Origin: a virus
Virus record (IMG/VR): IMGVR_UViG_3300045988_062804
Length of the DNA: 64,000 bases
Reading direction: 5' to 3' (one strand)
In this document: in pieces, positions 10,674 through 53,013 of the stretch
How the letters are laid out: the number at the start of each line of letters is the position of its first letter
How positions within the stretch are numbered: position 1 is the first letter of the stretch
Made by a program: the position numbers and the translations under genes
Notes under the pieces: model-generated
Databases searched by the model: none
Told to the model about the DNA's origin: nothing
What the model saw: the letters and a program-made list of their open reading frames with translations, nothing else

Positions 10674-11365
10674 AAATATGTGTAACGTCTGACTTGCATG
10701 GTATTCTTCCTAAAATAGAAGAGCCTTGTGAGGTAGTATTGATATGTGGAGATATTATACCACTGCGTATGCAGAGGAACATCCCTCAGAGTGAAAAGTG
10801 GCTAAAGACCACATTCGCTGATTGGGTTAATAATCTCCCATGTGAATCAGTAATCATGGTGGGAGGTAATCATGACTTTGCCCTAGCTAATATGTATAGG
10901 CAACCTCTAAAGATTAGCTCAATATTGAGTAATCCTACTAATGGTAAACTTGAGTTATTAGATAATGAAGAAACATCCGTCATTAGTAAGGATGGTAAGA
11001 TATATAGTATATGGGGAACTCCATATTGTAAAATCTTTGGTAACTGGGCATATATGTATGAACCAGAGACATTGATTAAAGCATATGAATCTATGCCCCA
11101 GTATTGTGATATTGTTATATCTCACGATGCACCCAAATTGTGTGGGCTTGGTGTTATTCACCAAAGGTTTGACAGGGAGGATGCAGGTAATCCTTGGTTA
11201 GCTGATGAGATGCTTCGTAAACATCCTAGATATACATTCTGTGGACATATTCATAGTGGTGAGCATACACTGCAAACCTTTGATGATATGAAAATGGCTA
11301 ATGTGTCTTTAGTAGATGAAACTTACACTGAAACTTTTAAACCTTTATACCTCGATGTCGAATAA
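10670..11365 (+). CDS. calcineurin-like metallophosphoesterase (TTG start)
   Basis: MPP motifs: VTSDLHG, CGDIIP, GGNHD, SHDAP, GHIHSG. Motif I lies 5 codons after the TTG at 10670 (cTTGA overlap). No in-frame ATG precedes it, so the TTG start is required. Confidence 0.85.
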   Translation: MKICVTSDLHGILPKIEEPCEVVLICGDIIPLRMQRNIPQSEKWLKTTFADWVNNLPCESVIMVGGNHDFALANMYRQPLKISSILSNPTNGKLELLDNEETSVISKDGKIYSIWGTPYCKIFGNWAYMYEPETLIKAYESMPQYCDIVISHDAPKLCGLGVIHQRFDREDAGNPWLADEMLRKHPRYTFCGHIHSGEHTLQTFDDMKMANVSLVDETYTETFKPLYLDVE

Positions 11366-11564
11366 TAAAGTTGTAGTACAAGGAGGAGTTGGATTCCCTG
11401 GATTGTTGTTTATAGTACTGTTAGTTTGTAAACTATTTGGTGCTAACATAACATGGTTCTGGGTATTTGCTCCATTATGGATTCCTCTTGCATTAGTGGC
11501 AGGATTCTTCTTAGTATCAATTCTAATTGCAATATTTGTAGCATGGAAAAGAAAACTACTTTAG
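11355..11564 (+). CDS. small membrane protein (69 aa, two predicted TM helices)
   Basis: MSNNKVVVQGGVGFPGLLFIVLLVCKLF...WVFAPLWIPLALVAGFFLVSILIAIFVAW. I prefer the ATG at 11355 to 11316, which lies inside the upstream gene. Confidence 0.55.
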   Translation: MSNNKVVVQGGVGFPGLLFIVLLVCKLFGANITWFWVFAPLWIPLALVAGFFLVSILIAIFVAWKRKLL

Positions 11565-12124
11565 TAGTTGTGGACTTCCAGTATGACTTCTGTCTACTGG
11601 GAGCACCACTCTACGTTCCTGGGTCTGATAAGGCTCTGTGGAACATTTCTCATTTAATTGAGAATAAGAAAGTTGATAGAGTGATATTCACTGCTGATTG
11701 GCATCCAGCTAATCACTGTTCATTCAAAAGGAATGGTGGTAAATGGAATGACCATTGTATGCAGTTCTCTAAAGGAGCAGCTATACATGATTTGTTATTG
11801 TATGGTTGTATAGGTGCTAGTATACCCTATGAAGTACTCACTAAAGGGGCTTTACCCAGCTCTGAAGAATACGGAGTTAAGGTAGCTCCTGCTACTATAA
11901 AGGTTAACTATCATACTATCTATAGCCATTCTATGGGTATTGATGTTAACCCAGACGAGCAGGTGGTAGTATGTGGATTGGCAGGTGATTATTGTGTTCT
12001 TGAAACCTTAAAGAACCTAGAACCAATTAAGCCTATGTTATACCTGGATGGTGTAGCATCTCTGGATGGCGGTATGAAACTCAATGAGTATATTGAATCT
12101 AATAACATTATAATATGGTCATAG
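11543..12124 (+). CDS. pncA: nicotinamidase (isochorismatase family)
   Basis: VVVDFQYDF (catalytic Asp), ADWHPANHCSF (metal site) and GLAGDYCVLET (catalytic Cys). I chose the ATG at 11543 (MEKKTTLVVVDF). Confidence 0.9.
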   Translation: MEKKTTLVVVDFQYDFCLLGAPLYVPGSDKALWNISHLIENKKVDRVIFTADWHPANHCSFKRNGGKWNDHCMQFSKGAAIHDLLLYGCIGASIPYEVLTKGALPSSEEYGVKVAPATIKVNYHTIYSHSMGIDVNPDEQVVVCGLAGDYCVLETLKNLEPIKPMLYLDGVASLDGGMKLNEYIESNNIIIWS

Positions 12125-12351
12125 GATTACTTACAATATTGTTAGTACATCTAACTCTTACTTTCATAGGTATTCTTATGGGCAAGTACATACCTAATTT
12201 CGTTGACAAGAAAGATGAGAAGGACGTGGTTGCCTTCTTCTATTGGTGTATCTTTCCTCTATCAAATATAATGGTTATTCTGATAGGTATATCTTATCTA
12301 GTGGATAATAAAGTACACAAATTTTCTAAATATTTAATGAGATGGTTATAA
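12115..12351 (+). CDS. small membrane protein (78 aa, two predicted TM helices)
   Basis: Hydrophobic segments IGLLTILLVHLTLTFIGILMG and FFYWCIFPLSNIMVILIGISYLV. Overlaps both neighbours. Confidence 0.55.
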   Translation: MVIGLLTILLVHLTLTFIGILMGKYIPNFVDKKDEKDVVAFFYWCIFPLSNIMVILIGISYLVDNKVHKFSKYLMRWL

Positions 12352-13505
12352 AATCAATCCTTGATACGGACTTGTATAAGTTTACAACTTCGTATGCTTA
12401 CATGAAGCTGTTCCCTCATGCAATAGGGACGTTTGAGTTCTTTGATAGGGACAACACAGAGTACACAGAAGAGTTTGTACAACAACTACAAATGGAAATA
12501 TCCAACTTCTGTTCTCTAAAGTTAACTCACGATGAACAAGACTATATGACGACTCATTGTCGTTTCATTCCTCCAATGTATTGGGAATGGTTGAGTGGAA
12601 TTAGACTCAGTGCTGGTAAAGTACAGATATGGTTAGATGAAGATAAGCATCTCCATATCAAAGCTACTGACTACCTTTACAGAGTAACTCTGTATGAAGT
12701 GCCAATCTTAGCGATAGTATCTGAGCTTCGTAATAGAATGCTCAATCATACTATCAATATGACAGATGTTCTTATTAGACTAGAACCTAAGATAGTTCTT
12801 TCTAATCAGAATCAAATGTTCTTCTCTGAGTTTGGTACTCGTAGACGCTATTCATACAATGTTCAAGAAGCTATAGTAAAGAGTTTGAAAGATAGTGCAG
12901 TATATTGTACTGGTACTTCTAACTGTTACTTGGCAATGAAGTATGATATGTCTATGATTGGAACTCACCCACATGAATGGTTTATGTTCCACGGTGCTAT
13001 GTATGGCTATAAGCAAGCTAATTATATGGCATTGGAAGATTGGGTAAGTGTGTATGATGGTGACTTAGGTATTGCATTGAGTGATACTTATACTTCTGCT
13101 GTATTCTTCAGGAATCTGTCTCGTAAGCAAGCAAAGCTGTTTGATGGTGTGCGTCAGGATAGTGGTGATGAGTTTAAGTTTGTAACAAGTACTATTGCAC
13201 GTTATAAGGAACTTGGAATCGACCCTACTACTAAGACAATTATCTTTAGTAATGCTCTTACATTCGAGAAAGCTCTTGAAATCCGAGAATATTGTAGAGG
13301 ACGTATCCGTTGTGCATTTGGTATTGGAACTAATCTCACTAATGATACTGGACATAGACCTTCCAATATTGTTATGAAATTAACTTCCTGCCAGATGAAT
13401 AAGAATCAACCTGTATTTAACTGTGTTAAACTATCCGATGATTTGGGTAAGCATACTGGTCAGGAACAAGAAGTGGAACACTGTATGAGTGAGCTGGGAT
13501 TATGA
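12342..13505 (+). CDS. pncB: nicotinate phosphoribosyltransferase
   Basis: N-terminal SILDTDLYKFT and FSEFGTRRR, characteristic of NAPRTase. The size (387 aa) fits. Confidence 0.9.
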   Translation: MVIKSILDTDLYKFTTSYAYMKLFPHAIGTFEFFDRDNTEYTEEFVQQLQMEISNFCSLKLTHDEQDYMTTHCRFIPPMYWEWLSGIRLSAGKVQIWLDEDKHLHIKATDYLYRVTLYEVPILAIVSELRNRMLNHTINMTDVLIRLEPKIVLSNQNQMFFSEFGTRRRYSYNVQEAIVKSLKDSAVYCTGTSNCYLAMKYDMSMIGTHPHEWFMFHGAMYGYKQANYMALEDWVSVYDGDLGIALSDTYTSAVFFRNLSRKQAKLFDGVRQDSGDEFKFVTSTIARYKELGIDPTTKTIIFSNALTFEKALEIREYCRGRIRCAFGIGTNLTNDTGHRPSNIVMKLTSCQMNKNQPVFNCVKLSDDLGKHTGQEQEVEHCMSELGL

Positions 13506-13684
13506 AGTGGGAATATAATAAGGTTAGCTCATCATGTGAGCTAACTACTTCTAAGCTAAATGAATTAGGTAAAGAATCGTGGGAACTTGTATCAGTGATG
13601 CAAACCACTTCAGTTAAGTATATTGGCGGGGTTCGTATTGATACTACATCAATGGTTTATTACTTTAAAAGACCAATAGAATGA
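13502..13684 (+). CDS. DUF4177-like small protein
   Basis: MKWEYNKV...LNELGKESWELVSV...YYFKRP pattern. ATGA overlaps on both sides. Confidence 0.5.
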   Translation: MKWEYNKVSSSCELTTSKLNELGKESWELVSVMQTTSVKYIGGVRIDTTSMVYYFKRPIE

Positions 13685-14532
13685 GAGAATTAAATTATGA
13701 AAGGGTATTCAATGTTCTCGTCAAAGAGACATCGAATTATATTACTAGGAATCGTCTTAATGCTATGGTTCTTGGGATTAGTGGTGGTATTGATTCAACT
13801 GTAGTGGCAGCTATCTGCCATGAAGTGAGTAAGCAAACTGGCATTCCTCTAGTAGGAAGAAGTCTTCCCATTAAGAATAAGGAAGATGAGTTTGATGTGT
13901 CTAAGCTAGTTGGAGAGGCTTTCTGCAGTGATTTTAAGATTATAAATTTAAGTTTAATAACTAAGAGTTTAGTTGTGGAGCTTAAGGCAGAAGAATGTGC
14001 AGAATTAACTCCTATTGCAAAAGGTAATATTCAGGCTAGGCTTAGAATGATGTATCTATATAACCTTGCTTCAATCCATAAAGGGCTAGTAATGAGTACA
14101 GATAATCAAACTGAATACCAACTTGGATTCTGGACTATTCATGGTGATGTAGGCGATTTCGACCCAATTCAGGGATTGTGGAAGACTGAGGTCTATGGGT
14201 TAGCTGAATGGCTTAAGGACTTCTATTTTACAGATGGGGACGATGTTCATAAGGCTGTAGCTATTAAAGAGTCTATGTCTCTTACTCCTACTGATGGTCT
14301 GGGTATTAGTAGCAGTGATTTAGAACAGATTGGTGCTAAGAGTTATTATGATGTAGACAGAGTATTACAAACTGTTACTTGTAAGGCTTCTCCTGAGAAT
14401 GACAAATTACAGGACGAACTAACGGCTGAACTTGGTCCAGATGTCGTGGGCAAAATCATGCAACGTCGTTTTAATTCTAGATTCAAGAGGTTACTTAGTC
14501 CTATCATAGTACCTAGAGAACTGTATGATTGA
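13681..14532 (+). CDS. nadE: NH3-dependent NAD+ synthetase
   Basis: PP-loop LGISGGIDSTVVA. At 283 aa it has no glutaminase domain. Confidence 0.9.
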   Translation: MRELNYERVFNVLVKETSNYITRNRLNAMVLGISGGIDSTVVAAICHEVSKQTGIPLVGRSLPIKNKEDEFDVSKLVGEAFCSDFKIINLSLITKSLVVELKAEECAELTPIAKGNIQARLRMMYLYNLASIHKGLVMSTDNQTEYQLGFWTIHGDVGDFDPIQGLWKTEVYGLAEWLKDFYFTDGDDVHKAVAIKESMSLTPTDGLGISSSDLEQIGAKSYYDVDRVLQTVTCKASPENDKLQDELTAELGPDVVGKIMQRRFNSRFKRLLSPIIVPRELYD

Positions 14533-14644
14533 CTTCTTAGAGCTAATCCTAGAATTAGTAAATGTTAAATCGTGTAATGAGCTAGTGGCTCTGCTTGTTA
14601 TGGGCGGAGTACTAGCCATTATCTATTATTTGTTTCTTGTATGA
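14525..14644 (+). CDS. tiny membrane protein (39 aa, below ORF-track cutoff)
   Basis: Hand translation gives MIDFLELILELVNVKSCNELVALLVMGGVLAIIYYLFLV. It overlaps the nadE stop and forms an ATGA junction with the next ORF, filling the apparent gap. Confidence 0.4.
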   Translation: MIDFLELILELVNVKSCNELVALLVMGGVLAIIYYLFLV

Positions 14645-14889
14645 AATTATATTATTTATTCTTATTGGTAATGTTCCTCCTCTTTAATAGTTGTGTGGAA
14701 CAGACTCCGAGAACTAAGTCAACTATCCCTATATCAGTTAGGGATACTACTAAGAGGGCAAGTAGGAACCATTTGTGGAACTCTAATACATCAACCTATA
14801 AGAAGACTAAATCCTCATACACTCCGTCTAAGAAAACGTACAAGAGGAAATCTTCTTACAAATCAAGAAGTAGGAGGCATAGGAGATGA
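14641..14889 (+). CDS. predicted lipoprotein / secreted protein with a very basic S/T/K/R/Y-rich tail
   Basis: MKLYYLFLLVMFLLFNSC has a signal peptide ending in Cys. The tail is KKTKSSYTPSKKTYKRKSSYKSRSRRHRR. Confidence 0.5.
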   Translation: MKLYYLFLLVMFLLFNSCVEQTPRTKSTIPISVRDTTKRASRNHLWNSNTSTYKKTKSSYTPSKKTYKRKSSYKSRSRRHRR

Positions 14890-15446
14890 TAGGAGTATTC
14901 TTTGGGTCTTTTGACCCACCCCATATTGGTCATGTTAATATAGTCACAGCTGCACTTAATTCTGGTATTGTTGACAAGGTTATAGTAGTTCCAGCATATA
15001 AGAGTGTATGGAAGAACACCGAAACTAAGTGGGAGTATAGACTCACTATGGCTAAGGAAACCTTTGATAACATTCCTGGAGTAGTTGTGGATGGTATTGA
15101 GTATCGTATCGCTAATGGAGAACCATTACCCACTTATAAGACTATTGAAGCATTAAAAGAGATTTATGGTGAGTTTACTATCGTAACATCTGCTGAGACT
15201 TATAAGGAGATTCCAAGATGGCAGCATGGTGATGAGATACTAAAGGGCAATAAGTTCTTAGTAGTAGATGTAGCACACTTTAATAGTGAGGATATTCCAC
15301 ATGATAAAGTGAAAGTTATCTATGCTCCCGATATTACAATATGCTCTACCGCTATCAGAAAGTGGGTTGATAATGGCAGAATTATAATACCATTTGTAAC
15401 AGATGAAGTAAATTCAATAATTAGAAAACTTGGGCTATACAAATGA
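14886..15446 (+). CDS. nadD: nicotinate-nucleotide (NaMN/NMN) adenylyltransferase
   Basis: GVFFGSFDPPHIGH (GxFxPxHxGH) and C-terminal ICSTAIRKW (ISSTxIR). Confidence 0.9.
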   Translation: MIGVFFGSFDPPHIGHVNIVTAALNSGIVDKVIVVPAYKSVWKNTETKWEYRLTMAKETFDNIPGVVVDGIEYRIANGEPLPTYKTIEALKEIYGEFTIVTSAETYKEIPRWQHGDEILKGNKFLVVDVAHFNSEDIPHDKVKVIYAPDITICSTAIRKWVDNGRIIIPFVTDEVNSIIRKLGLYK

Positions 15447-15976
15447 GTCAAATCTATGTTTCGGGTCCTTGGTCTTTTGCTTCTGGAGTACTGCAAGTAG
15501 TTAAGAGCATAAAGACCCAATCTAAGGGAGATAAGGTAGTTTATAGTGAGAAAGGAACTGAGTATCAGTTCTCTAAACTAGAACAATCCGATTATGTCGT
15601 ATTCGTGTTAGATGGATTTGCATGGCAGCAGAGATTAGAAAGTATTTCTAAGGGAATGCTCTCAGAACTTATATGGTGTATCAATCATAGAGTTCCAATG
15701 TTCTTAGCTTACAAATCAGCTGATGGATTAGGCATATATGCAACTGAAATAGATGACAATTTAACCTTTAAGGGAATTGCAGGTACTGCCAACACCTTCT
15801 ATCAGATTATAAACAATCAGTTTGGGACTATTGTAGCTCCAAATGATACTTCTGGATTTGTTCTGAGTTATCAAGACGCGGATTTAGGAAGCGATTGTGT
15901 ATATCTGAAGGGAGAGTGGATAGCTGACCCATTAGATTTCCTTAATGTTGAACAACCAAAGAGTTACTTTTATTAA
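15443..15976 (+). CDS. nucleoside 2-deoxyribosyltransferase-like / DUF4406-like Rossmannoid protein
   Basis: N-terminal IYVSGPWS (cf. hYhAGP) and SDYVVFVLDGFAW...SKGMLSELIWCINHRVPMFL (cf. D.G...E.G.A.a.gkPv). Matched by eye only. Confidence 0.45.
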   Translation: MSQIYVSGPWSFASGVLQVVKSIKTQSKGDKVVYSEKGTEYQFSKLEQSDYVVFVLDGFAWQQRLESISKGMLSELIWCINHRVPMFLAYKSADGLGIYATEIDDNLTFKGIAGTANTFYQIINNQFGTIVAPNDTSGFVLSYQDADLGSDCVYLKGEWIADPLDFLNVEQPKSYFY

Positions 15977-15977
15977 T

Positions 15978-16520
15978 ATGAAGAACTTTCCTTTATTAGA
16001 CGAGAATGGTAAGGAATGGTGGATTAGCCGTTCTATTGCTGTAACAGGATGTATATTTACATTCCTAAATGGTAAGTGGTGTGTACTAGCCAATAAGAGA
16101 GGTGAAGGTACTCCCGACTTCCAGGGAATGTGGAATATGCCATGTGGTTACTTAGACTTTGATGAAACTACAGCACAAGCTGTGGTTAGAGAGGTCTACG
16201 AAGAGACTGGTGTTAAGGTAAATCCAGAGTACTTACACTTCTGGAAGTTCAATGACTCTCCAACTCAGAATAGGCAGAATGTATCATTCAGATACTATGC
16301 TCTAGTTGATGCACAGCCAGGTAATATCAGTGTAGGTACTGGTAATGACAGAGGTGGTGAAGAAGACGAGGTAGAAGCTATTGGATGGATTCCAGTAGAC
16401 TCTATTGATAAATATCAGTGGGCATTTGGTCACGATGAAATCATTAAGGAGTTTACTGAGTGGATGCACTTAGAGGATGGAGATTTGGATATGCAAGACA
16501 TAGACTTAGACCCAGTATGA
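15978..16520 (+). CDS. Nudix hydrolase
   Basis: Nudix box GYLDFDETTAQAVVREVYEETGV. I prefer the ATG at 15978, just after the upstream stop; 15945 is an alternative. Confidence 0.9.
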   Translation: MKNFPLLDENGKEWWISRSIAVTGCIFTFLNGKWCVLANKRGEGTPDFQGMWNMPCGYLDFDETTAQAVVREVYEETGVKVNPEYLHFWKFNDSPTQNRQNVSFRYYALVDAQPGNISVGTGNDRGGEEDEVEAIGWIPVDSIDKYQWAFGHDEIIKEFTEWMHLEDGDLDMQDIDLDPV

Positions 16521-18558: not shown

Positions 18559-18873
18559 ATGAAAATCGAAGAGAAATTTAAAAAATTCCAACAAGGTGGT
18601 GCTGCACCTCAGCCAGGAGCTGAACAAGCAGGAGGAGCACCAGCCGAGGGAGCACCAGCAGAAGGTGGTGCACCTGCTGAGGGTGGACAAGACCCAATGC
18701 AACAGATTCTACAAGTAGCTGCTCAGGCAGTTCAGACACAGAATTGTGAAGCTGCGATGGCTGTGTGTCAAGCCCTAATGCAAATCGCTCAAGGTGGTGC
18801 TGCTCAGGAACAAGCTCCTCAAGAGGAACCAACTTTTGCAAGGAAAGGTGCTAGACTAGTAAGAGTAAGATAA
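18559..18873 (+). CDS. low-complexity Ala/Gly/Pro/Glu/Gln-rich acidic protein with a basic C-terminus (104 aa)
   Basis: MKIEEKFKKFQQGG leader, GAPAE repeats, a Q/A-rich helical part, and the end FARKGARLVRVR. It is bracketed by its own promoter and terminator. Confidence 0.65.
   Translation: MKIEEKFKKFQQGGAAPQPGAEQAGGAPAEGAPAEGGAPAEGGQDPMQQILQVAAQAVQTQNCEAAMAVCQALMQIAQGGAAQEQAPQEEPTFARKGARLVRVR
18634..18687 (+). repeat. imperfect 15-18 nt coding tandem repeat (GAPAE x3)
   Basis: gga gca cca gcc gag / gga gca cca gca gaa / ggt ggt gca cct gct gag. Confidence 0.8.
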
Positions 18874-18892
18874 TTAGTCAACAAGGTAAGAA

Positions 18893-18923
18893 GGGGCGTA
18901 TATTAATTATATGCTCCTTTTTT
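18893..18923 (+). terminator. rho-independent terminator or attenuator
   Basis: GGGGCGTATA-TTAAT-TATATGCTCC (10-bp stem with two G-U pairs) followed by TTTTTT. It lies only 14 nt before the next ATG. Confidence 0.6.
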
Positions 18924-18937
18924 GTTATACATAGTAT

Positions 18938-21900
18938 ATGTCACAAGTAATAAGAAAATTTGAGAACTCTGGTAAGATAGAACAATCTAAGCCAGAACTA
19001 TTCGAGAGAAGTGGCGTTGGTAAGTACAATAAGGCTGATTTAGTTGCTGGACTATATAGGAACATAGATACCTATATAAAGAATAATAATCTTAGCGGAG
19101 ACAAAGCAGTTTCGTTTAGAAACTCTGCTAACCAGTTTATTAAAGGTATTGAGAATGGGACTATTAGTATGAATGGTGATGGTACATTCTCTGATGCAAC
19201 AGGTAGTATGGCTAGTACTGGAAAGTTTGATAGGAACTGGATAGGACGTAAGAAAGATACTACAAATAATGCCTTTAATTTAGTTGGTGACTATGCACTA
19301 GACTACATCAATCAGATGCAACAATACACTGAGCCAGCAGCTAAGCCTAAGTCAAAGTTTAATACTAACGACTTCCTAACTAAAGAGATTTCTAAAAGAT
19401 GGTATGGTGGTAACAATATAGATTTCGGTAACTGGTTCAAAAACAGAGGTGAGCAAGACCGTAACGCATTATTGGGAGACATCTTTAATAATGTAGACTA
19501 TAATCAGTTATACCAAGATTATGATTGGACTGACACTGGAATTAACAGTGCAGAAGATTTAGCTACCCGTGGAAGAGCATTTAGTACAGCCATTTCTAAT
19601 AATGCATTAGACAATGATGATTACAATACCTTTGCTACATTAGGTGGCAGTGGTTTGGATAAGTTCCTAAAGGAAGCTCCAGTACAAACTGAACCTACTC
19701 CAGAACAAAGTAGGATGAAGGCATGGGAAGCTGAAGCTGAGGCAGCAGGTGCTACAACTCCTGAAGCTAAATCAGCATATATCCAACGTAAACAAAGGGA
19801 AGAAGCTGATAGAAATGCAGCTATTATTAAGGCAACCGAAGAAGATATATATAACAGGGAAAGGGATGCATTCTTTAATGACTATGCTACTAAGAATCCG
19901 TTCAAGGGAACTGTAAGTGGATACGTAGCAAGTAAAACTTCATACAACCCAGAGAATGTACTACAGTATATAGACACTACTCATAAAGGGGCTATTAATG
20001 ATTACCTAAAGAGTGCATTAGACCCAAGGTATTTTAGAGGTCAATTACCTCACCAAAACGTACAAGGTCAAGACAATCTTAGAGAACATTTGGCTAATAA
20101 CCTTGACCTAGCTATCAATACTGGTAAATTACCAAAGATAGATGATGAAACTTATGCTATTCCTGGTACTTATAACTATGATAACTGGTCTTTAGTGACT
20201 TACAATCCAGTATCAAGACAATATAAAGAAACCTCCATGCTTGCTAATGATGCTTTAAAAAAGATAGCATATGCTGAGTATGATAGAAGAAAGAAGACAC
20301 CTACCAACAAAGAGGGTGGTGTTATTAAACTTCAATACGGTGGATTTGTTGAGGATGATAGTGCATACAATGCTTATAGAGAGCAGTTTGCTAAGAAGAG
20401 AGAGGACAAGGAGAAGCAAGTTCAAGCTAAGGCTAAGGCTACTAACAGGTCTGTAGAAGAAGTCAAAGAAGGTGAGAGAAAGCCTATGGCTGATAACCAA
20501 GAATGGGAGTGGGACGACTACACTAGACTTGGTGCTGCTGGTGCTGACGTAGCTTCAATCATTGCATCGTTTGTTCCTGGATACGGAACTATAGCATCTG
20601 CTGGACTTGGAGTTGGAAGTACCCTAGCTAACTTTGGTGCAGACATGAAGGATGGATTCCAGTTGAGAGATTTAGGTAATCTTGGTCTTGGTCTAGGAAT
20701 GGATGCTGTTGGTCTAATCCCAGGTCTTGGGGCTGCTGGAAAAGGTAGTAAGATACTCAAAAACTTACTAAAGGTTGCTCCTAAGCTAATGACAGCATGG
20801 AGTGTTTCTACATCATTTGCGCCCGCAATGCAAGCCTTTAATAAACTAAAGGATAAGGGTGCTAAAGAAATGACTGTAGATGATTGGAAAGCATTAGCCA
20901 ATGGTCTAACAGCTGCTGCTGGTGCTACTCGTTGGGGTGCTGCCGCTGCAAAGAACAAAATCAATACAAACAAATATGGAACTACTACCAGAACAGTTAC
21001 TACTAAATCTGGTAAGCAAGTTCAAATGTCAGAAGATGAGTTCCAGAGAATAAAGAGAGCTTCTGGTATTGAAGGACAGAATGAAGCCTTACAAGCTGTA
21101 GAGGGTGCAAAAGGTGAACAACTTCCAACAACATTTAAGAAATGGTATGATGTTAGGAGAGCTTATCAAGGAACTCCTGATGTTGATAAGAATACTGTAA
21201 TCAATACAGATGCTATGAGGAGAACTGCTCCTGATGGTACTGTTCTCGAACCAACTAAGTTCTCTAATCAAGGTATCTGGAGAGGTGCTGTTAATAACGA
21301 TTGGGGAAACAACTGGAAGGGTTGGAAAGGTCCGAAATGGTTAAAGGACTGGGGTTATGCTCCAGCTAAGAAAGAAGTAGACCCTAAAACAGTGAATGAA
21401 GCTGTTGATGCAGTATCTTCTATAGCTAGAACACTACATACAGCATCAAGGTTTAAACAAACACCATTAGCTTTACCAGCACCAGGACAAGCAACTCCGT
21501 CTAACAGAGTATTCGTTATGGGTTCAGGTAAACCTAACACTCCTAGAGATGTAACTAACCCATCTAATCTTAGAAAGCCAGGAAGCTATACAGATAGAGC
21601 TGTTCCAGTAGGAGGTACCCCAGTAGAATCTCCAAATGCTAATAAGGTAGTTGCTTCTCAAACCATACAACCTACTCAAAGATTAGACCAATTCATTGAA
21701 GGTCAAATCCCAGGCGGAAGGCAGTTCGGTAGACAAAGAGCTAAGACTGAGAGAGAATACAGAGATGTATTCCACCCAGCTGCTGAGCGTGAGTATAACC
21801 AAGTATGGGATGAAGCTGTTAGGGGTAAAAAAGACTTTGGATATGAGGAAGTATTTCCTAAGAGAAGTCCGTATGCTCCTCCTACACCTACTGAGGTATA

Positions 21901-23707
21901 TGTAACTCCAGGAGAAACTGTAAAAGACCCTAATGCAAGGTACTTATGGGAACTTATTAATAAGAAACCTAGTACTGCTCATGTTAAGAGGGATAATCCT
22001 CCTCGTAAGGCTAAACCTAAGAAGAAGAAAACTTCAAAGGATGATAGAGTTACTAAGAAAGCTGAGGGAGGTGTCGTTCAGTTCTTACAAGGTGGTAATA
22101 CTGTAGGACGAATCAAAGCTAAAGATATGTCTGGTTGGAACAGAGCAAATGCTTTAGCTAACTACGATTGGATTGTCGATTATGATAGATGGGCATCACA
22201 ACATGAAGGTCCAGATGATGTAGTTGATTCTTATATGTTAGCATTTAACGGTGGTGAAGATATTTACGACCAACTAACATCTAAGACTGGTGATTACTTC
22301 GGAGGTAAGTACAATTATTCAGTGCAAGACCCATTAGCTAAACATAGACAGATTACTTTTAGAGGTACTAATCAAGGCTTTGATGATTTAATCAGAAAGG
22401 GTATTGTAGGTTATGGTACTACAGAAGGTAACTCTGGATTTGATATATACGCTGGTGATAGAACTGGCAACAGAACACTTGCAAGAGGAATGTCTCCAGA
22501 AGATGTTGCTCGTTTTAATAAGCAGTTAGCAACTAGAGGAATGGAACTCTATGATAAGGGTAATGGTGCTTACAGACTAAGGAGATTAGAACAAAAACCT
22601 GTTGAATTACCAGAGGTTGTTGTAACTGCTGATGCTCCTAAGACTCCTGCAACTACTAACCCTTCAGCTATCAAGGGAGCTGCACCTAAGAAAGGTAAAG
22701 GCTTCAATCTTGGAGTAATGCCAGAGGATGTAATAGCACTAGGTAGAATGGTTGGTGGACTAGTAGCTAACAATAAGGCAGCTAAGTTATATAAAGAGGG
22801 ATTAAAACCTACTTTATTAGACACATTTGAAAATACTGTTCCATTACAAGGTAACTTCCAAGCTACAACTAATGCTGAACAACAAGCAGGTAATCTTGAA
22901 TCTGTAGCAGCTAGACCTAGAACTTCTGATGCTTCACTTCAGCTTGCTGGAGAATTAGAAGCTAGTGGTAGAGCAGGTCAAGCTAGATTCCAAGGTGGTC
23001 TACAAGATGCAGAAATGTTCTATAAGACCAGGATGTTAGGACAGCAAGAATCTGATGCTGCTAAGGCAAGAAGAGTTGATGTAGCTAATAGGAATAGAGC
23101 TTCAATGAATCAAATTGATGCAGCTAAGAAACAGATTGATGCAGCTAGAGTTACATCTAACTATCAAAATGTTATTGCTCCTTATCTAGCTGGAGTTGAG
23201 AACCAATTCGCACAGAAGAGGGCTATGAACCAGCAATTAGATATGGAAGAAGCTCAGAGAGAAGCTGAAAGGACTTATTCTCCAGAGTTCGACAGACTAA
23301 CACAGGATTATAATAATGCTTATAAAGCATACGGTACAGCTAATAACAATAACTACACTGGATGGGAGACATCTAATGAATATAAATCATTAGTAAACAG
23401 AAGAAAATCTCTTAATGATAATGTATCTCAGTTCTTACTGGATAAGAGAAGAGGAATAATGGGTTCTCCATATATGTTCCAAGTTAAGAAGAACTCTTCT
23501 ATAAAGACTCCATATGTTAAGTCTGGAGGTAAGTTAAGTGCTGCTGATAGAGAGAAATTACAAAGAGCTAAAGATTTTAATAAGAGATTGCTTGAAGACA
23601 ATAAGCAGTTCCACAAAGATATTATGGAATCTAAGAGAGAACATAACAAACTAATAATGTCTATGTCTTCTCTAACTTCTGAGTTAATAAAGAAAGCAAT
23701 GTCATGA
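18938..23707 (+). CDS. 1589-aa virion-type protein with a Gly-zipper membrane-active segment and a C-terminal coiled coil (ejection/tape-measure-like)
   Basis: Long uninterrupted ORF. Contains GAAGADVASIIASFVPGYGTIASAGLGVGSTLANFGADM...GLGLGMDAVGLIPGLGAAGKG and a Q/A/R-rich helical C-terminus. The function is inferred from composition and position. Confidence 0.5.
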   Translation: MSQVIRKFENSGKIEQSKPELFERSGVGKYNKADLVAGLYRNIDTYIKNNNLSGDKAVSFRNSANQFIKGIENGTISMNGDGTFSDATGSMASTGKFDRNWIGRKKDTTNNAFNLVGDYALDYINQMQQYTEPAAKPKSKFNTNDFLTKEISKRWYGGNNIDFGNWFKNRGEQDRNALLGDIFNNVDYNQLYQDYDWTDTGINSAEDLATRGRAFSTAISNNALDNDDYNTFATLGGSGLDKFLKEAPVQTEPTPEQSRMKAWEAEAEAAGATTPEAKSAYIQRKQREEADRNAAIIKATEEDIYNRERDAFFNDYATKNPFKGTVSGYVASKTSYNPENVLQYIDTTHKGAINDYLKSALDPRYFRGQLPHQNVQGQDNLREHLANNLDLAINTGKLPKIDDETYAIPGTYNYDNWSLVTYNPVSRQYKETSMLANDALKKIAYAEYDRRKKTPTNKEGGVIKLQYGGFVEDDSAYNAYREQFAKKREDKEKQVQAKAKATNRSVEEVKEGERKPMADNQEWEWDDYTRLGAAGADVASIIASFVPGYGTIASAGLGVGSTLANFGADMKDGFQLRDLGNLGLGLGMDAVGLIPGLGAAGKGSKILKNLLKVAPKLMTAWSVSTSFAPAMQAFNKLKDKGAKEMTVDDWKALANGLTAAAGATRWGAAAAKNKINTNKYGTTTRTVTTKSGKQVQMSEDEFQRIKRASGIEGQNEALQAVEGAKGEQLPTTFKKWYDVRRAYQGTPDVDKNTVINTDAMRRTAPDGTVLEPTKFSNQGIWRGAVNNDWGNNWKGWKGPKWLKDWGYAPAKKEVDPKTVNEAVDAVSSIARTLHTASRFKQTPLALPAPGQATPSNRVFVMGSGKPNTPRDVTNPSNLRKPGSYTDRAVPVGGTPVESPNANKVVASQTIQPTQRLDQFIEGQIPGGRQFGRQRAKTEREYRDVFHPAAEREYNQVWDEAVRGKKDFGYEEVFPKRSPYAPPTPTEVYVTPGETVKDPNARYLWELINKKPSTAHVKRDNPPRKAKPKKKKTSKDDRVTKKAEGGVVQFLQGGNTVGRIKAKDMSGWNRANALANYDWIVDYDRWASQHEGPDDVVDSYMLAFNGGEDIYDQLTSKTGDYFGGKYNYSVQDPLAKHRQITFRGTNQGFDDLIRKGIVGYGTTEGNSGFDIYAGDRTGNRTLARGMSPEDVARFNKQLATRGMELYDKGNGAYRLRRLEQKPVELPEVVVTADAPKTPATTNPSAIKGAAPKKGKGFNLGVMPEDVIALGRMVGGLVANNKAAKLYKEGLKPTLLDTFENTVPLQGNFQATTNAEQQAGNLESVAARPRTSDASLQLAGELEASGRAGQARFQGGLQDAEMFYKTRMLGQQESDAAKARRVDVANRNRASMNQIDAAKKQIDAARVTSNYQNVIAPYLAGVENQFAQKRAMNQQLDMEEAQREAERTYSPEFDRLTQDYNNAYKAYGTANNNNYTGWETSNEYKSLVNRRKSLNDNVSQFLLDKRRGIMGSPYMFQVKKNSSIKTPYVKSGGKLSAADREKLQRAKDFNKRLLEDNKQFHKDIMESKREHNKLIMSMSSLTSELIKKAMS

Positions 23708-25518
23708 GAATAACTTCTAATATAGATAAGCTACAACAGGGTGGAGGTATTCCACCCTTTGTTAGCTACACTAATGTTCCAAGACCTCAGCCAACTGCTC
23801 CATATAGCACATCAGATGTTAAACAAGCAACTGGAGAAGAATCAGAAGGGGGGTTTGGTTTACTAGATAAAAATATGGTGAAGATGCTTTATGAGAAGGG
23901 CCTACCAAGTGATGTAGAGCAATTCTTAGACCAGTCTGGGTTGTTCTCTGAGTCCATAATGTCTAATCCATTTGAAAAGACTAACGGTGCAGCTCAATAT
24001 AAAGCACTATTAAAGATATTACCCAAGATAGCTATGAATAAGGAAGAGTATAATAGAGCTATACAAGAAGCTACTAAGAATAACGCTCTTAAAGAAACGG
24101 CTATTGATACAGACGGCAGGGTATTTGCTATTAGTCCAGATGGACAAGTTACTAAGAAATTTATAAGCCAATTAGAGGAAGGTGAGCAAACCTTAACAGT
24201 TGGTCAAATGGCTGAGAATAGAGCCTATAGTCAAGGATTAGCATTTAACAGTAATGCTATTACTGCTATTGCTAACAGCACAAGTATTGAACAAATTAAT
24301 AAGACAATATGGGAAGCGATTAAGAATTTAGGTTCTAATACAAGAGCTAATGAATACTTTAGGTCTAAGGATGAAAGAAAAGCTAAGGCAGGAATTGATA
24401 AGCTATTAGAGGAAGGTGCAGACGGTGTGTATAAGATTAATTCTAAATCTATATCACAGGATGCTCAAGCCAAATATGCTTTGAATTATATATTATCAAC
24501 ATTACCAGCTAATCAAAAAGTTCTATTGCAAGACTATGCCAGGAAATCTGGACTAGATTTAAAGACTGGTCCGTTAGAAATCATTACTAGCATGATACAA
24601 TCTGGAATCAGTTCTACTGAAGAGATTGGAGTTAACTATGACAAGCAAGCTACTAATGGTGCTAATACTGATGAGAAAGGTAACAAGAAGACTAGGGCAT
24701 TTGATATTCCTATGATGATTATAACTGGAGATGGTCTTCCTAAAGAGAATGCAAGAATTAGTTTTGGTAGTAACTATGCTATTGATGTACAAGCACAGAA
24801 GTTACCATTCATTCCAGGTAGTGATGGTAAACCTATTGGTCCAACTTCTTTAATGGGAGCTTTAAGTGGTCAGTTAGGTAGTGTAGTTAATAAAGACGCT
24901 GTACACGTTGGTAATCAAAGACTTGATGCCACTAAGCTTAATCAGCTATACTATGACGGTACTGGAGTATCTACAATGGAATTACCTTATACTCTTGATG
25001 AAAATGGACAAGCTGTTCCTGATTTCGATGTTATAGGTGCTTACAAGGCAGCTGTGGATGAAATCAATAAGAGAGGTAAGGATGTTACTAAAGCTGAAGT
25101 AAATCAAGTATTCCAAGAAAGAGGTCTGAATAGATATTTTAATGAAGATGGTAGTTTTAATAGGGATAACTTTATGAGGTTTGCAGGCATATCAGTTATT
25201 GGTGATGATGAAACCTTTGAAGACCCTGACGATAACTCTGACTTCTTTATGCCTATCACAGATGATAGGTTAACAGCACAGATAAGTGCAACATTAGGTA
25301 CTAAGTCAAACCCTATGGATATGGGAGACCTATATAGAACTATTGCTTATGTACCTATTTATGACTCTCCGAGTCTAGCAGGTGCAGCATCTGGTAACTT
25401 CTCATGGATTAAGGATGAAGGAGCTATGATGGAAATAGCAAAAGAACAACAACTCCGTAACGCTAGACAGGCATATAACAACAACATAACTAAAAGTCAA
25501 TTATTAAATGGACAATAA
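23704..25518 (+). CDS. 604-aa virion-block protein, function unknown
   Basis: ATGA overlap with the upstream gene. N-terminal MRITSNIDKLQQGG leader. Confidence 0.6.
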   Translation: MRITSNIDKLQQGGGIPPFVSYTNVPRPQPTAPYSTSDVKQATGEESEGGFGLLDKNMVKMLYEKGLPSDVEQFLDQSGLFSESIMSNPFEKTNGAAQYKALLKILPKIAMNKEEYNRAIQEATKNNALKETAIDTDGRVFAISPDGQVTKKFISQLEEGEQTLTVGQMAENRAYSQGLAFNSNAITAIANSTSIEQINKTIWEAIKNLGSNTRANEYFRSKDERKAKAGIDKLLEEGADGVYKINSKSISQDAQAKYALNYILSTLPANQKVLLQDYARKSGLDLKTGPLEIITSMIQSGISSTEEIGVNYDKQATNGANTDEKGNKKTRAFDIPMMIITGDGLPKENARISFGSNYAIDVQAQKLPFIPGSDGKPIGPTSLMGALSGQLGSVVNKDAVHVGNQRLDATKLNQLYYDGTGVSTMELPYTLDENGQAVPDFDVIGAYKAAVDEINKRGKDVTKAEVNQVFQERGLNRYFNEDGSFNRDNFMRFAGISVIGDDETFEDPDDNSDFFMPITDDRLTAQISATLGTKSNPMDMGDLYRTIAYVPIYDSPSLAGAASGNFSWIKDEGAMMEIAKEQQLRNARQAYNNNITKSQLLNGQ

Positions 25519-28500
25519 GAAGCCGAATGATTGGATGTTGAATGTGTTACAGAACCCTAGTTTCTCTTTATCTGATTTTAAAGCGGTAGGGATTGATGGT
25601 AATAACACTTCCATTGAAGATAGAGAAGTCTATGCTAATAACAAGATTATACAATCAAATCCACAATTCCAGGATAGTGACGGTAACTTTGATAATGCAA
25701 AGTTTAACCAATTCTATGATGGTGCATTAGAGTCATATCAACTATTAGCTAATAATACGTTTAATGAGACTGTAATGGATGAGGCTACCTTTGGATTTAA
25801 TAATATTTGGGCACCTAAGGAAGCTAGTAAAAGAACTCAACCTGAGTTTCAAATCAATAGGATATTCAATCCTGACAGAAGGAAGATGGGAGTAGAGAAA
25901 GTAGGGTTCACTAGTGATAGAACCCTCACTGCTGCTGAAATAGCTCAGACTCAAAAGGTATATGACCCAGAGACAGGTGAGTGGGATGAATCTCCTAATG
26001 ATGCGTGGTTAGGTAGGAATTGGTTCCAACCAGTAGCCCTAGCTCAATGGGACTCCGATGATTATCATATTGACCCAGAAACCAATAGAAAGGTATGGCA
26101 CAAGAAAGGTGAGCTAAAGCTAAACGACGAAGGTACTTACTACTATGAAAAATTAGGCAGTAGAGAACCTTATGGTAGACAAATACTATCTCCATTTGAC
26201 GTTCTAACTACTGATGGTTCTAAGGCTAATAAATATGACTTCTTCGATTCAGATAGCTTAGATAAGAGTGTGTTTGGAAGTATAATGAAGAATACATTTA
26301 AGATTGCTCCTATGTTTGTGCCTTATGTAGGACCAGTATATATTGGATTAGGTATTGCTAATGAGTTAGCTAAAGTGTTACCTATTATATATAAGACTAC
26401 ATTTGGGTTAGCTGGAGCATCTACTGACTGGGCTAATAAGTTAGAGGGATTTGCATATTCTATGGATAGTGGAACATCTGAGTATGCTAAGCAACACCCC
26501 TGGGCAGCTGAGAACATCCTTAATATGGTTGGCGATGTAGCTAAACAGCTATATGAACAGAGGTGGATATTCACTAATGCCCCAAGATTATTTAAGTCTT
26601 ACGGCATATCATCTAAGAATGGTACCCCGTCAGAGTTGGATAAGCAAATAACTAAGTTGGCAGAAGAGTATACTCAAACTGCTGTTAAGGATATTCCTAA
26701 GGTATTAAAGTCTTTAGAGGCTACAGGTAGTCTCGATATTATACAGAAAGAAGCTTTAGCTAAAGCTACTATATGGGGTCAGAATTATATGAAGAGTTAC
26801 GAGAACTGGGGTAAACACCTATCTCGTCTTTATATGACTGGTACAGCTTCATATAATGCTTTTAGTGATGCTAAACAAGAAGGAGCATCTGATGAACAAG
26901 CTGCTGCTGTGTTCTGGGGATATATGGCTGGAATGTATGCTCTAATGGCTAGTGATATTGGAGAACACGTACTTCCAGAATTGAGGATGGATAAGGCTCA
27001 AATCAAAAAACTTATCCAAGATGTAAGTCAGCAAGCAAAGCAAAGTATATCTACTAATGCAGTTAAATCTGAATCTAAGGAGTTAACTAAGAATGTATTT
27101 GCTAAGTTGTTCAATGGTGCAAAGTCCTTTGCTCAGAATAACTACAAAGCTATTGCTGATGGCTCTACTTCTATTCTATCTAATGCTCTTGCAGAAGGTG
27201 TAGAAGAAGTAACTGAGGAAGTATTATATGATGTTACTAAAGCAACATTTAATGCTATCTCATATTTTACTGGTAACGAAAGAAGGCTATCAGCTTTTAA
27301 TGATATGGCTTCTCGTTATAGTATGTCATTCTTTGGAGGTGCTATCGGTGGTGGTATGTTCCAAGGTATTAATGATATTAAGATTAGAAAATCCTACGAT
27401 TCTAGTAATATGCAGGCTAATCAAGAACTTATCTATCTAATCAGACAAGGTCGTGGTGAAGAGATTTACAAGGCTTTGGAGGATATGAAGAAGAAAGGAG
27501 TGCTTGGTGATAGAAACCTATCTGCAACTAAGGTTGATAAGGTGGGTGATAAGTATGCATATCAACAAGGAACCGATAAAGATAATCAAAATGATGCTAT
27601 ATATAGTCTAATGAAGGATTATGTAAGCAACATTGAACAAGTTCTATCTGTTGAGGGAATGAAGCTATCTGATGCTACTTTACTTGATAAGCAAATGTTA
27701 TCTGAGTTAAGGTATCAGGAGTTATTCAAGAATGCTCCTTCTGCTGGTAAAATTTTACAAGACTTCAATAACCTTGCTGATAGGTTTTTAACCCTACACA
27801 GTAAGATTGATGAAATCAACGCTACTTATTCAGACGAGAACGGTAAGAAGAGTAAGGAATATGCTGACGCTATGGCTGCTGTTCAACAGCAAATAGATGA
27901 TGCTAAGAAGGAACAATATGAGTTCTTACATACTGGTAAGAGAGGTAAGTATTTAGGAATGATGATGTTCTCTACTAATCCTGTGATTAGTAAGCCATTT
28001 ATTGATATGAACTTCAGAATGTATGCAGAGTCCAAATATAACAAAGACTTCGAAGCATTATCTGAAGATGATATAGCTAAAGCTAAAGAGGACTACAACG
28101 ATTACCTACAGTATGATGCCAATTCTAAGTTAGATATGGCATATGATGTATTCCGTAATATGAACGAGAAGCTATCTCCTATCTTCCAAGAAGCAGGAGA
28201 GTTGGGATATAAGCAATATGCTCAACTAAAAAGGAACTTCTATAGTGCCAATCTATCTCTGACCGATGCTGATGGTAATGTTACTCCTATGACTATATCA
28301 GATATACTTGGTGATATGTTCGGAAGTAAGAATGCTACTGATGAAGATATAATCGAGAAGGCTGAGAGTCTAAAGAAACCGAGAATAAATGAAGCTAAGG
28401 AACATCCATTTGATGAAATATCAAGGTTCTTAACTTATACTATGCCTACGGTTGATGGTTCTGCAATCTCTAACGGTGCTGTATTGGTTAGGCAGCTAAA

Positions 28501-51718: not shown

Positions 51719-52429
51719 ATGATATACCTAATAGACTTACAAACGTGTTATAAAATCGGGAGTTGTTCTGATATTAATAAGAGAATCAAGTCCTTTAAAA
51801 ACGCAAGGGAAAATGTTAAAGTTATAGATTTAATAGTAAATCCTGAAAAGACATTAGATAGTAAGGAAGATATTAGAATAGAAAGAGATATCCAGGAATT
51901 ATGTAGTAAATATCTAATAACAAGAGAACTATTTATGAAAGATGATAACGTAGTATCTATATTTAGGGACTACAAACACAACGTAATAAAGGATAATACT
52001 TTATGGGAAATAGACGAAATTAATGAGACTAGTATAAATCAAAGCAAGCCAACCTATCAATACGATATGCTTGGAAACTTCATAAATGTTTATAAGAGTA
52101 CTTCCAACGCTGCCACTTTAACTGGAATTAGTCGTAGTTGTATTCAAAGAGCATGTACTGGTAATTCCAGTAGGGCTGGAAACTTTATATGGAGTTTTAA
52201 TGAATTAAACGCAGAAGAACTTAAAGATAAGATAAGTAAAGCTGAACTTACACTTCCATCTAAAATACAACAATTTACTAAAAGTGGAAATCTAATTGGT
52301 AGTTATGATTCAATCAGTGATGCTTTTAGAGCTACTGGAGTCAGAATTTCAAGTATATCATCATGTATAAATGGTAAGTATAAAAGTGCTGGGGGATATA
52401 TATGGGTAAAACAACAAAGGGAGGCGTGA
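51719..52429 (+). CDS. T5orf172 / GIY-YIG-superfamily domain protein with two NUMOD1-like HTH repeats
   Basis: MIYLIDLQTCYKIGSCSDINKRIKSF (YKIG...R pattern of T5orf172). There are two repeats: Y.S.S.A...TG(I/V)S.S.I..(A)C.G....AG.(F/Y)IW. Confidence 0.6.
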   Translation: MIYLIDLQTCYKIGSCSDINKRIKSFKNARENVKVIDLIVNPEKTLDSKEDIRIERDIQELCSKYLITRELFMKDDNVVSIFRDYKHNVIKDNTLWEIDEINETSINQSKPTYQYDMLGNFINVYKSTSNAATLTGISRSCIQRACTGNSSRAGNFIWSFNELNAEELKDKISKAELTLPSKIQQFTKSGNLIGSYDSISDAFRATGVRISSISSCINGKYKSAGGYIWVKQQREA

Positions 52430-52449
52430 GCCTCCCTTATTTTTTTTTA
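52405..52449. terminator. bidirectional rho-independent terminator at the convergent junction
   Basis: AAGGGAGGC-GTGA-GCCTCCCTT is a 9-bp GC-rich stem. T9 follows on the + strand and TTGTTGTTTT on the - strand. It overlaps the stop codons of both flanking genes. Confidence 0.8.
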
Positions 52450-53013
52450 CTTAGTTTTCTTCTCTACATATTCAGGTTCTCTTTCGTCCTGTTGCTTTAG
52501 ATAAGTAAACATTCTCTTACCTAACGCCTTATAGTCTTTCTCACTCTTTGATTTAGAAGCTCTCTTAGCCATTCTGATTAGGGTTCTTGTATTCTTTCTA
52601 CTAAAGATTCTCTCTCCTCCTTCTAATTCCATTTGAGTAGAACCATCAGGGGCAATTACCTTCATTTTAGGCAATTCTTCGTCCTCTTCAATATCAAGTT
52701 CATCTCCCTCTTTAATACCAGAGCCTTGATTAACTTCTAATACAAATTGTACGTCATCTTCCTCAGCTATATTCTCATTCTCAGGTTCTCCCTGATATAC
52801 TGATATTACTTCCATATCTTCATTAATGAAAATGATGTCTAGTGGAATTTTAGTGTCCTTCATCCAGAATCCTACAGTCTGAGGCTCCTCAAAGAAGAAT
52901 AACATTCCTTCATCATCTTTCATTTCTGTAACTCCTTGTAGACCTTTCATTCTTTCCTCTTCAGTTCTAGCACAAGTTACATTATACTCTCTGTCTCCTA
53001 TTTCAATCTTCAT
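52447..53013 (-). CDS. DUF192-domain protein with an acidic and basic C-terminal extension
   Basis: MKGLQGVTEMKDDEGMLFFFEEPQTVGFWMKDTKIPLDIIFINEDMEVISV matches the rGLm...GmlF...fwMknt.ipLDiiFi pattern of DUF192 (COG1430). Confidence 0.6.
   Translation of the reverse strand: MKIEIGDREYNVTCARTEEERMKGLQGVTEMKDDEGMLFFFEEPQTVGFWMKDTKIPLDIIFINEDMEVISVYQGEPENENIAEEDDVQFVLEVNQGSGIKEGDELDIEEDEELPKMKVIAPDGSTQMELEGGERIFSRKNTRTLIRMAKRASKSKSEKDYKALGKRMFTYLKQQDEREPEYVEKKTK

Follow-up and report, generated by a model that had tools for sequence, protein, structure and literature searches.

A conserved Gln-x-Gly-Gly motif on putative ejection proteins of crassviruses as a possible docking signal

The window analysed here, that is the whole 64,000-nucleotide stretch of IMG/VR virus record IMGVR_UViG_3300045988_062804, encodes several otherwise unrelated proteins that share one short peptide, a basic and weakly amphipathic stretch of 5-12 residues followed by [F/Y/L/M]-Q-x-G-G. 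Its bearers are a small protein of 104 amino acids (aa) at 18559-18873, a 1589-aa giant at 18938-23707 (C1-like), a 604-aa protein at 23704-25518 (C2-like) and, on the minus strand, a 581-aa protein at 53013-54758 (post-muzzle). All four are non-polymerase proteins of a gene block associated with the crassvirus muzzle gene, and searches of PHROGs and Pfam with the four proteins gave no matches. The motif is genuine and strongly conserved, and it seems not to have been described before; a literature search found no paper on it. We propose, with a probability of roughly 0.45, that the motif is a short linear signal for the docking or incorporation of ejection-type proteins. We favour this reading over a processing site and over a role after ejection, while the three are not mutually exclusive.

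Conservation of the motif at N-termini and inside the proteins

A first-pass annotation, made from the letters alone, had pointed to similar leaders ending in Gly-Gly on three proteins, and all three are borne out. The small protein opens with MKIEEKFKKFQQGG (18559-18600), the C2-like protein with MRITSNIDKLQQGG (23704-23745) and the post-muzzle protein with MRKLVKRYQWGG (54758-54723, minus strand). Each leader is a true N-terminus, in that no earlier start codon follows the preceding stop, and in the C2-like protein a third Gly directly follows the leader. A permutation test, which the annotation had suggested, showed [FLIVMYW]-Q-x-G-G within the first 16 residues of 3 of the 41 window proteins, compared to a mean of 0.024 in composition-preserving shuffles, none of which reached three in 5000 trials. 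Judged from the real internal frequency of the motif, 0.13 such proteins are expected (Poisson P = 3e-4). Because this pattern was set after the data had been seen, conservation in relatives is stronger evidence than the shuffle test.

Alignment of orthologues revealed that the basic-h-Q-x-G-G N-terminus (h, hydrophobic) is indeed conserved in relatives, both in the 104-aa and in the 604-aa family. The small protein has 480 homologues, one of them labelled Crassvirales. Among the 120 matches listed, all carry a leader of the form M-[KR]-I-x-[SE]-K-x-[KRS]-[KR]-[FY]-Q-x-G-G, start-codon miscalls aside; M1, Q11, G13 and G14 are invariant in the alignment, and K6 and F10 are at least 90% conserved (core KFQQGG in the window, 18583-18600). 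For the C2-like protein we obtained 57 homologues, down to 24% identity. In an alignment of 30 sequences G14 was invariant and K9 and G13 were at least 90% conserved, placing these three among the few invariant or near-invariant residues of the family. Nearly all full-length members start with M-x-h-h-x-K-[LMFY]-Q-Q-G-G-G-h-P-x-F-V-S-Y-T-N-V-P, with KKLAGGG and KYQSGG as variants, and conservation is equally strong past the Gly-Gly (GIPPFVSYTNVP). In the window, the motif and this extended conserved segment span 23704-23805 (MRITSNIDKLQQGGGIPPFVSYTNVPRPQPTAPY).

The motif is more variable in the other two families. At the N-terminus of the post-muzzle protein it is facultative: within this very large family (1531 clusters at 50% identity) the strict form opens 15 of 150 representatives (e.g., MRKRIKRYQWGG, MHKRIKKYQFGG and MPEIRKYQWGG), a K..[GA]-Q-x-G-[LM] variant opens 18, and the rest start otherwise. 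The C1-like giant had been listed in the first pass as a weaker case (MSQVIRKFENSG, 18938-18973, with the core KFENSG). It is a genuine but degenerate member, since its orthologues carry the motif (MSQVIRKYQTGG), as seen in the leaders MSQAIRKYQTGG, MSQVIRKYNSGG, MSQVIRKFEDGG, MAQVIRKYQEGG and MSQVIKKFEPGG. MSQVIRK[FY]xxGG is found at the C1-like start in five of eight loci, and a degenerate SG, GA or AG ending in the window and two others. The second weaker case, MSAKNCTSTLIIGG at 43735, had to be discarded as a member, as it is devoid of the basic-aromatic-Gln core, shares the Gly-Gly alone and belongs to a protein without a homologue in the only relative that is fully readable. The earlier remark that Gly-Gly occupies residues 13-14 in three proteins is therefore literally true, but its count includes this non-member.

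The codons of the core vary among the copies (CAA CAA GGT GGT, CAA CAG GGT GGA and CAG TGG GGA GGG). The signal therefore lies at the peptide level, and a signal at the DNA level is ruled out. Paralogy of a shared N-terminal domain is likewise ruled out, because the same core sits on otherwise unrelated proteins whose likeness ends at the Gly-Gly. The leaders vary between 8 and 19 residues in length around the constant core and show a helical hydrophobic moment of 0.52-0.70, versus 0.31-0.45 for shuffles. Moreover, GG dipeptides are about fourfold denser in the four motif proteins (31 in 2878 aa) than elsewhere (49 in 17435 aa).

The motif also occurs in conserved internal copies, which the first pass had overlooked, at 18778-18798, 20309-20344, 22061-22096 and 53703-53717. 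The first of these is MQIAQGG in the small protein (residues 74-80), which is nearly invariant. Two tandem copies lie within the C1-like giant, both after a run of Lys and Arg: KEGGVIKLQYGG (20309-20344, residues 458-469) after RRKKTPTNK, and AEGGVVQFLQGG (22061-22096, residues 1042-1053) after KPKKKKTSKDDRVTKK. At the position of the former, seven of the eight orthologues examined have a motif containing GG, mostly as a GG-x(5-7)-GG tandem; at that of the latter the orthologues read KKAEGGLIQFLQGG, KKANGGVLIPKYQGG, KKAEGGVIELFKGG and QQGGFISRVISLYQQGGSIPKYAGG. Among the equivalent units of the orthologues, the related locus L016 has a triple one. In the post-muzzle protein, FQKGG occupies residues 348-352 (53703-53717). 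Given these conserved internal copies, a free N-terminus is not required, and the description of the motif as an N-terminal leader as such is not supported.

The AlphaFold2 (AF2) model of the small protein comprises a helix (residues 3-11), a disordered linker (13-43) rich in Ala, Pro, Glu and Gly, a two-Cys helical hairpin (46-79) and a C-terminal β-hairpin, PTFAR.G..L.RVR. For the C2-like protein (30 sequences), AF2 gave a mean predicted local distance difference test (pLDDT) score of 72, with 70-92 in the body and 32-36 in residues 1-51, although these are the best-conserved part. The model gave no fold match in a Foldseek search of the PDB (best E = 0.47), as Pfam and PHROG searches had given none for the sequence. 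Alignments and models thus agree in that the motif is conserved above its flanks and has no predicted intramolecular packing. Such a conserved, unpacked and tethered peptide looks like a motif that is read by another protein.

The muzzle-associated gene block and its motif bearers

By sequence comparison, the window is part of a large (~185-kb) gut crassvirus. We base this assignment on the 1563-aa product of the gene at 54751-59442 (minus strand), which in tblastn matches crassvirus 'stabilization protein' genes, equivalent to the muzzle gp44 of ΦcrAss001, and whose orthologues carry PF25731 (crAss_MUZ); on the crassvirus proteins Crass_capsid, CrAss_Ring_1 and CrAss_Ring_2 in MT835470.1, the closest GenBank relative; and on IMG/VR contigs nearly identical to the window that reach up to 182-190 kb, a size that would suit the 'epsilon' group. 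Thus a muzzle gene and crassvirus capsid and ring proteins, by which a virion or cargo block of the Crassvirales is recognised, occur in the same lineage. A search for related loci with a single protein as query returned relatives that were all 93-99% identical.

The phage DNA has a GC content of ~36%, with genes on the plus strand at 45-52429 and on the minus strand at 52447-63626. Its left third is given to replication and to nucleotide and NAD metabolism and encodes a family A DNA polymerase, ThyX, UDG and, as an NAD-salvage cluster of the early region (12342-16520), NAPRTase, NAD synthase, a cytidylyltransferase-like protein (PF01467, CTP_transf_like) and a NUDIX protein. From 18559 onwards the plus-strand genes encode the 104-aa, 1589-aa and 604-aa proteins, a 2896-aa giant with an SF1 helicase domain, a 3178-aa giant, two mid-sized proteins and a 1539-aa protein with a PD-(D/E)XK nuclease domain, in this order. 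The minus-strand proteins are a DUF192 protein, the post-muzzle protein, the muzzle and a 1047-aa protein. Neither the muzzle nor the 1047-aa protein nor the 3178-aa giant found a match in sequence searches of the PDB.

In most relatives, the muzzle, post-muzzle, DUF192, small, C1-like, C2-like, helicase-giant and next-giant genes form one co-oriented block. The order small, C1-like, C2-like, helicase giant is kept in all relatives, and the small gene always immediately precedes the C1-like one. The block is split in the window and in the loci L013 and L018, so that the part with the muzzle, post-muzzle and DUF192 genes lies elsewhere, in the window ~30 kb away on the opposite strand when compared with L001 and L014-L017. 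This split accounts for the earlier observation that the leaders occur on both strands. At the strand switch (52429-52447) lies a homing-endonuclease-like gene (51719-52429; NUMOD1, T5orf172). As a further feature of these loci, TAG is read as a sense codon, probably for Gln, in L014, L016, L017, L018 and L024 (MT835492.1), whose cargo genes contain in-frame TAGs by the dozen; the code is standard in the window, MT835470, L013 and L015.

Within the window, the motif is confined to the four proteins of the muzzle-associated block. None of the replication and metabolism genes carries it, and neither do the helicase, nuclease and presumed polymerase giants (25508, 34209 and 46385). A census of the 113 open reading frames (ORFs) of MT835470 found it on six proteins, each of which either is encoded in the virion or ejection block or has a glucosaminidase domain. 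In addition to the four families of the window, these are a 275-aa and a 981-aa protein. The former (106500-107327, minus strand) is very basic and Cys-rich, starts with MATKFQQGG, has repeated KCGG.AK+RIKK units and is encoded beside a portal-sized gene at the head of the virion module. The latter (113887-116832, plus strand) starts with MKVIPKLQQGN, has its glucosaminidase domain at residues 609-737 and contains an internal KKAQQGMRFVSYNPVS that mirrors the N-terminus of the C2-like protein. The full motif is absent from all 53 ORFs of the replication and metabolism arm of MT835470, the sole loose match being the GG of a 253-aa protein (11046-11807). In the more distant relative MT835492, the motif is found on the post-muzzle, small and C2-like proteins and not on the C1-like one. 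The post-muzzle copy is present in the window, MT835470 and MT835492 and absent in L014 and L016. Such lineage-specific gain and loss, with the set as a whole persisting, is as expected for many ligands of one receptor.

These data refine what the first pass had taken for a common packaging or targeting signal of the capsid interior. A shared signal on a class of virion-associated proteins, all from the muzzle-associated block, is upheld by its distribution; as a general mark of proteins destined for the capsid interior it fails, as the helicase, nuclease and presumed polymerase giants are without it.

Further features were seen in the proteins of this block and in one bacterial protein. The tail of the small protein (EEPTFAR.G..L.RVR, within 18769-18873) is nearly invariant, as are C63 and C70, fully so, in its helical hairpin. 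The C-terminal domain of the post-muzzle protein (53013-53351, minus strand) is kept in ~1500 clusters, has no Pfam model and starts with the invariant GG..N.IP.GALHA+KHH...GITKKGIPVV; it is opened by an invariant F-x-x-GG (FAEGG, 53322-53336). The 2896-aa helicase giant and its orthologues in L013-L018 have a conserved N-terminus of their own (25508-25600; K-x-NDW-h...NP-x-F-[ST]...F-[KR]-x-V-G-h), which may be a different signal for a second class of packaged proteins. The C1-like giant has a Gly-rich hydrophobic (glycine-zipper) segment at residues ~520-600, and the domain behind its leader (residues ~20-135; 18995-19342) recurs as a 51-68% identical copy in P0183, a bacterial 219-aa protein found on many contigs (L025 and L026, 8001-8660). 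P0183 itself begins with a signal-peptide-like hydrophobic stretch and also has a ~95-aa unknown domain. Its gene lies on the bacterial chromosome in an island with integrase, DUF3871, ParE-Phd and resolvase genes, beside genes for adenylosuccinate lyase and a tRNA synthetase, and the protein may act in the periplasm against this phage group, as a decoy or an exclusion factor.

Between the post-muzzle and small-protein genes of the relatives, and at 52447-53013 (minus strand) of the window, lies the gene for a 188-aa DUF192 (UPF0127) protein (Pfam E = 1.9e-26). It holds the same position in L014-L017, MT835470 and MT835492, and among GenBank phages the domain occurs only in these relatives and in T4-like cyanophages. 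A tblastn search of a phage collection gave no match in ΦcrAss001 or any other named crassvirus, and a literature search on DUF192 found nothing useful. We regard this protein as a candidate chaperone or partner of the motif.

Known systems and rival explanations

In ΦcrAss001, the genes after the muzzle encode gp45 (C1), gp46 (C2) and then RNA-polymerase-associated giants, all of which are found in virions (Bayfield et al. 2023, PMC10172136). The motif genes lie at the same place, after the muzzle and before the polymerase-associated giants. Judging from this gene position, the motif proteins are positional counterparts of the ejection-type cargo C1 and C2, the post-muzzle protein, whose gene follows the muzzle in every relative, that of gp45 and the C2-like protein that of gp46. 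Homology to gp45 or gp46 was not detected (BLASTP E no lower than 0.69; hhalign probabilities of 0.1%, 2.7% and 11%), and the profile comparisons of the C2-like and post-muzzle families with gp46 and gp45 gave at most a weak glycine-zipper match. The epsilon group is also without a detectable gp45 homologue (PMC10172136).

Some likeness in sequence style is nevertheless apparent. ΦcrAss001 gp45 has a basic N-terminus (MAKKKIKRRGKMPP...), NIFDTGG, a glycine-zipper membrane segment and repeated F-x-x-GG, and its NAFGG (residues 424-428) opens the portal-bound domain. The C1 proteins of ΦcrAss001 (gp45), DAC15, cr50_1 and Fpv3 all begin with a basic run. Within ~25 residues an aromatic-x-x-GG follows in the first three, Fpv3 having a looser, Tyr/Gly-rich KYGYGSSG, and both gp45 and the DAC15 protein contain further internal copies. 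On the other hand, gp45 and gp46 are without the compact K-h-Q-x-GG leader, and no counterpart of the 104-aa protein appears in the annotated part of ΦcrAss001 that was examined. The compact tag looks like a sharpened version of an older C1 feature, multiplied over several proteins.

Among other systems, the capsid targeting sequence of T4 is, by analogy, probably the nearest functional counterpart. This ~10-aa N-terminal tag of unrelated injected proteins (IPI-III, Alt) directs them into the prohead. An N-terminal tag shared by several injected proteins would have its equivalent here, with four bearers in the window and six in MT835470. The analogy in form, which the first pass had drawn, does not extend further. 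In T4 the tag terminates in L/I-x-E and the prohead protease gp21 cuts it off, whereas the present motif ends in Q-x-G-G, also occurs internally and is absent from the largest packaged proteins; neither the window nor the relative's virion module yielded a prohead protease family. Double-glycine leaders, a further comparison made at first pass, are also N-terminal peptides ending in Gly-Gly, but they are acidic, 15-30 aa long, hydrophobic at -4, -7 and -12 and accompanied by a C39 ABC transporter. The present leaders are basic, 8-19 aa long, with Gln at -4 and also at -3, F/L/M/Y at -5 and K/R at -6, and no C39 domain was found in the window or the MT835470 virion module. Sites of the adenain type, the third comparison, resemble the motif in that adenain and the African swine fever virus (ASFV) protease pS273R act on virion precursors with GG sites near the N-terminus and internally, and adenovirus protein VI exposes an amphipathic, membrane-lytic helix. 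Adenain requires M/L/I at P4, yet all 32 non-redundant small-protein leaders, and 25 of the 32 non-redundant C2-like ones, have Gln there; only the FLQGG and KKLAGG variants fit, and P1' is Pro in 34 of the 120 listed small-protein homologues. The ejection protein gp7 of the podovirus P22 loses a 20-aa leader, but it is a single protein without a motif shared across proteins.

These precedents bear on the possibility that the motif is a processing site, at which a GG-directed protease, either phage-encoded and unrecognised or from the host, would remove the 8-19-residue leaders and split the C1-like, small and hydrolase proteins during maturation or after ejection. Such trimming occurs in T4 internal proteins and P22 gp7 as well as in the precursor proteins of adenovirus and the polyproteins of ASFV. 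Gly-Gly is the most conserved element of the motif, conservation lies chiefly on the P side, leader length varies around a constant core, and the internal copies keep their positions across eight diverged genomes, within linkers of basic, low-complexity sequence that join conserved domains. However, most GG-directed proteases do not cleave before Pro, which follows the Gly-Gly in 28% of the listed small-protein homologues and in the C2-like proteins P0019 and P0020. The C2-like family is as conserved after the Gly-Gly as before it, several C1-like orthologues have SG, GA or AG in place of the Gly-Gly, and the model chain of ΦcrAss001 runs through an analogous AFGG-W junction (residues 425-552). 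Moreover, Pfam detects no protease domain in the 64-kb window or the ~33-kb virion module of MT835470, and no clan CE protease was seen in either, while ~120 kb lies outside the window and the giants could hide an unrecognised domain. As judged from these sequences, cleavage after Gly-Gly appears somewhat disfavoured, and we consider a processing site unlikely. The peptides across such sites are FQQGGAAPQPGAE... and FQQGGAAPQPGAEQAGG... in the small protein, LQQGGGIPPFVSYTNVPR in the C2-like protein and LQYGGFVEDDSAYNAYR in the C1-like giant. Other peptide signals fit less well: 3C-like cleavage after Gln is ruled out by the unconstrained residue that follows the invariant Gln (Q, M, E, D, V, A, W, Y, T, S or K), a transglutaminase-type Gln tag is improbable as Gln changes to Glu or Ala in C1-like and some C2-like proteins, and a type IV prepilin leader is ruled out by the lack of a hydrophobic segment or Glu5 after the Gly.

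Less likely still is that the motif has no role in assembly and acts in the envelope after ejection, where the cationic amphipathic leading end would engage the outer membrane, lipopolysaccharide or a periplasmic factor, with Gly-Gly as a hinge. It would suit leaders that are basic, predicted to be helical and of raised hydrophobic moment, and bearers such as the glucosaminidase and glycine-zipper proteins, which are expected to act in the envelope. The P0183-type protein, with its signal peptide and its copy of the domain behind the C1-like leader, implies that this end works in the periplasm, and gp45 of ΦcrAss001 is proposed to exit N-terminus first (PMC10172136). Yet a membrane-active helix needs more residues than minimal leaders such as MLKLQQGG and MATKFQQGG provide, the internal copies span only 5-7 residues with GG at either side, and membrane binding leaves the invariant Gln and Gly-Gly unexplained. 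A motif without function, whether arisen by chance, as a remnant of a duplicated N-terminus or as a nucleotide or translation-initiation signal, would agree with the shortness of the motif, with a pattern defined after the fact and with the Lys-rich (AAA-rich) starts that are common in AT-rich phage genes. It is effectively refuted by conservation, since the motif is kept across hundreds of homologues of 24-70% identity, and also by the shuffles, the differing codons and the positional conservation of the internal copies.

Docking as the favoured reading

In the reading we favour, one common partner in the assembling particle would recognise the motif, with the portal, a tail-barrel ring, the muzzle or an assembly chaperone as candidates. 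Recognition would recruit or dock the bearer proteins such that they are loaded and placed to leave through the tail, and the Gly-Gly would cap the helix or act as a hinge, releasing the tag from the remainder of the protein. The signal has been taken up by the non-polymerase proteins encoded beside the muzzle gene, namely the small, C1-like and C2-like proteins and, in some lineages, the post-muzzle protein. This is supported by a conservation of the motif far above that of the rest of each protein. It is also in line with the virion structure of ΦcrAss001, where short segments of gp45 dock on the portal, on the rings R1 and R2 and probably on the muzzle, whose density contains an unassigned 14-residue helical segment in six copies, thought to be N-terminal gp45 (PMC10172136). 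The authors expect gp45 to leave N-terminus first (PMC10172136).

Several points weigh against a docking signal. The presence of the bearers in the virion is deduced from gene position, with homology to gp45 and gp46 undetected, and the common receptor and the loading function are likewise inferred. Up to six proteins at one docking site raise a problem of stoichiometry. The near-invariant Gly-Gly, together with the strong conservation on its N-terminal side, also fits a protease site. Finally, the giants must be packaged as well, yet are without the motif, which therefore is not a general packaging signal.

A bolder version, which in its entirety we consider doubtful, is that K-h-Q-x-G-G is the address code of a crassvirus 'first-out' set that fills symmetric sites within the tail, such as that of the 14-residue muzzle helix and those in the rings and the portal. 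The code would set storage in the tail and ejection ahead of the DNA and the polymerase giants, with the DUF192 protein perhaps as loader. The internal copies would thread the giant through several rings, and a bacterial island would have evolved a periplasmic decoy.

No other phages of the human gut are as abundant as crassviruses. The sole available crassvirus virion structure contains megadaltons of cargo protein in head and tail, and leaves open how cargo is selected, positioned and ordered for ejection (PMC10172136). A compact tag that one class of cargo carries and the helicase, nuclease and presumed polymerase giants do not would offer a concrete and mutable handle on cargo selection. 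It would provide a peptide for the inspection of cryo-EM maps, for partner screens (portal, ring, muzzle and DUF192), for reporter fusions and for metaproteome searches. In uncultured crassvirus genomes, where searches by homology fail, it would also supply a sequence rule by which ejection proteins could be recognised.

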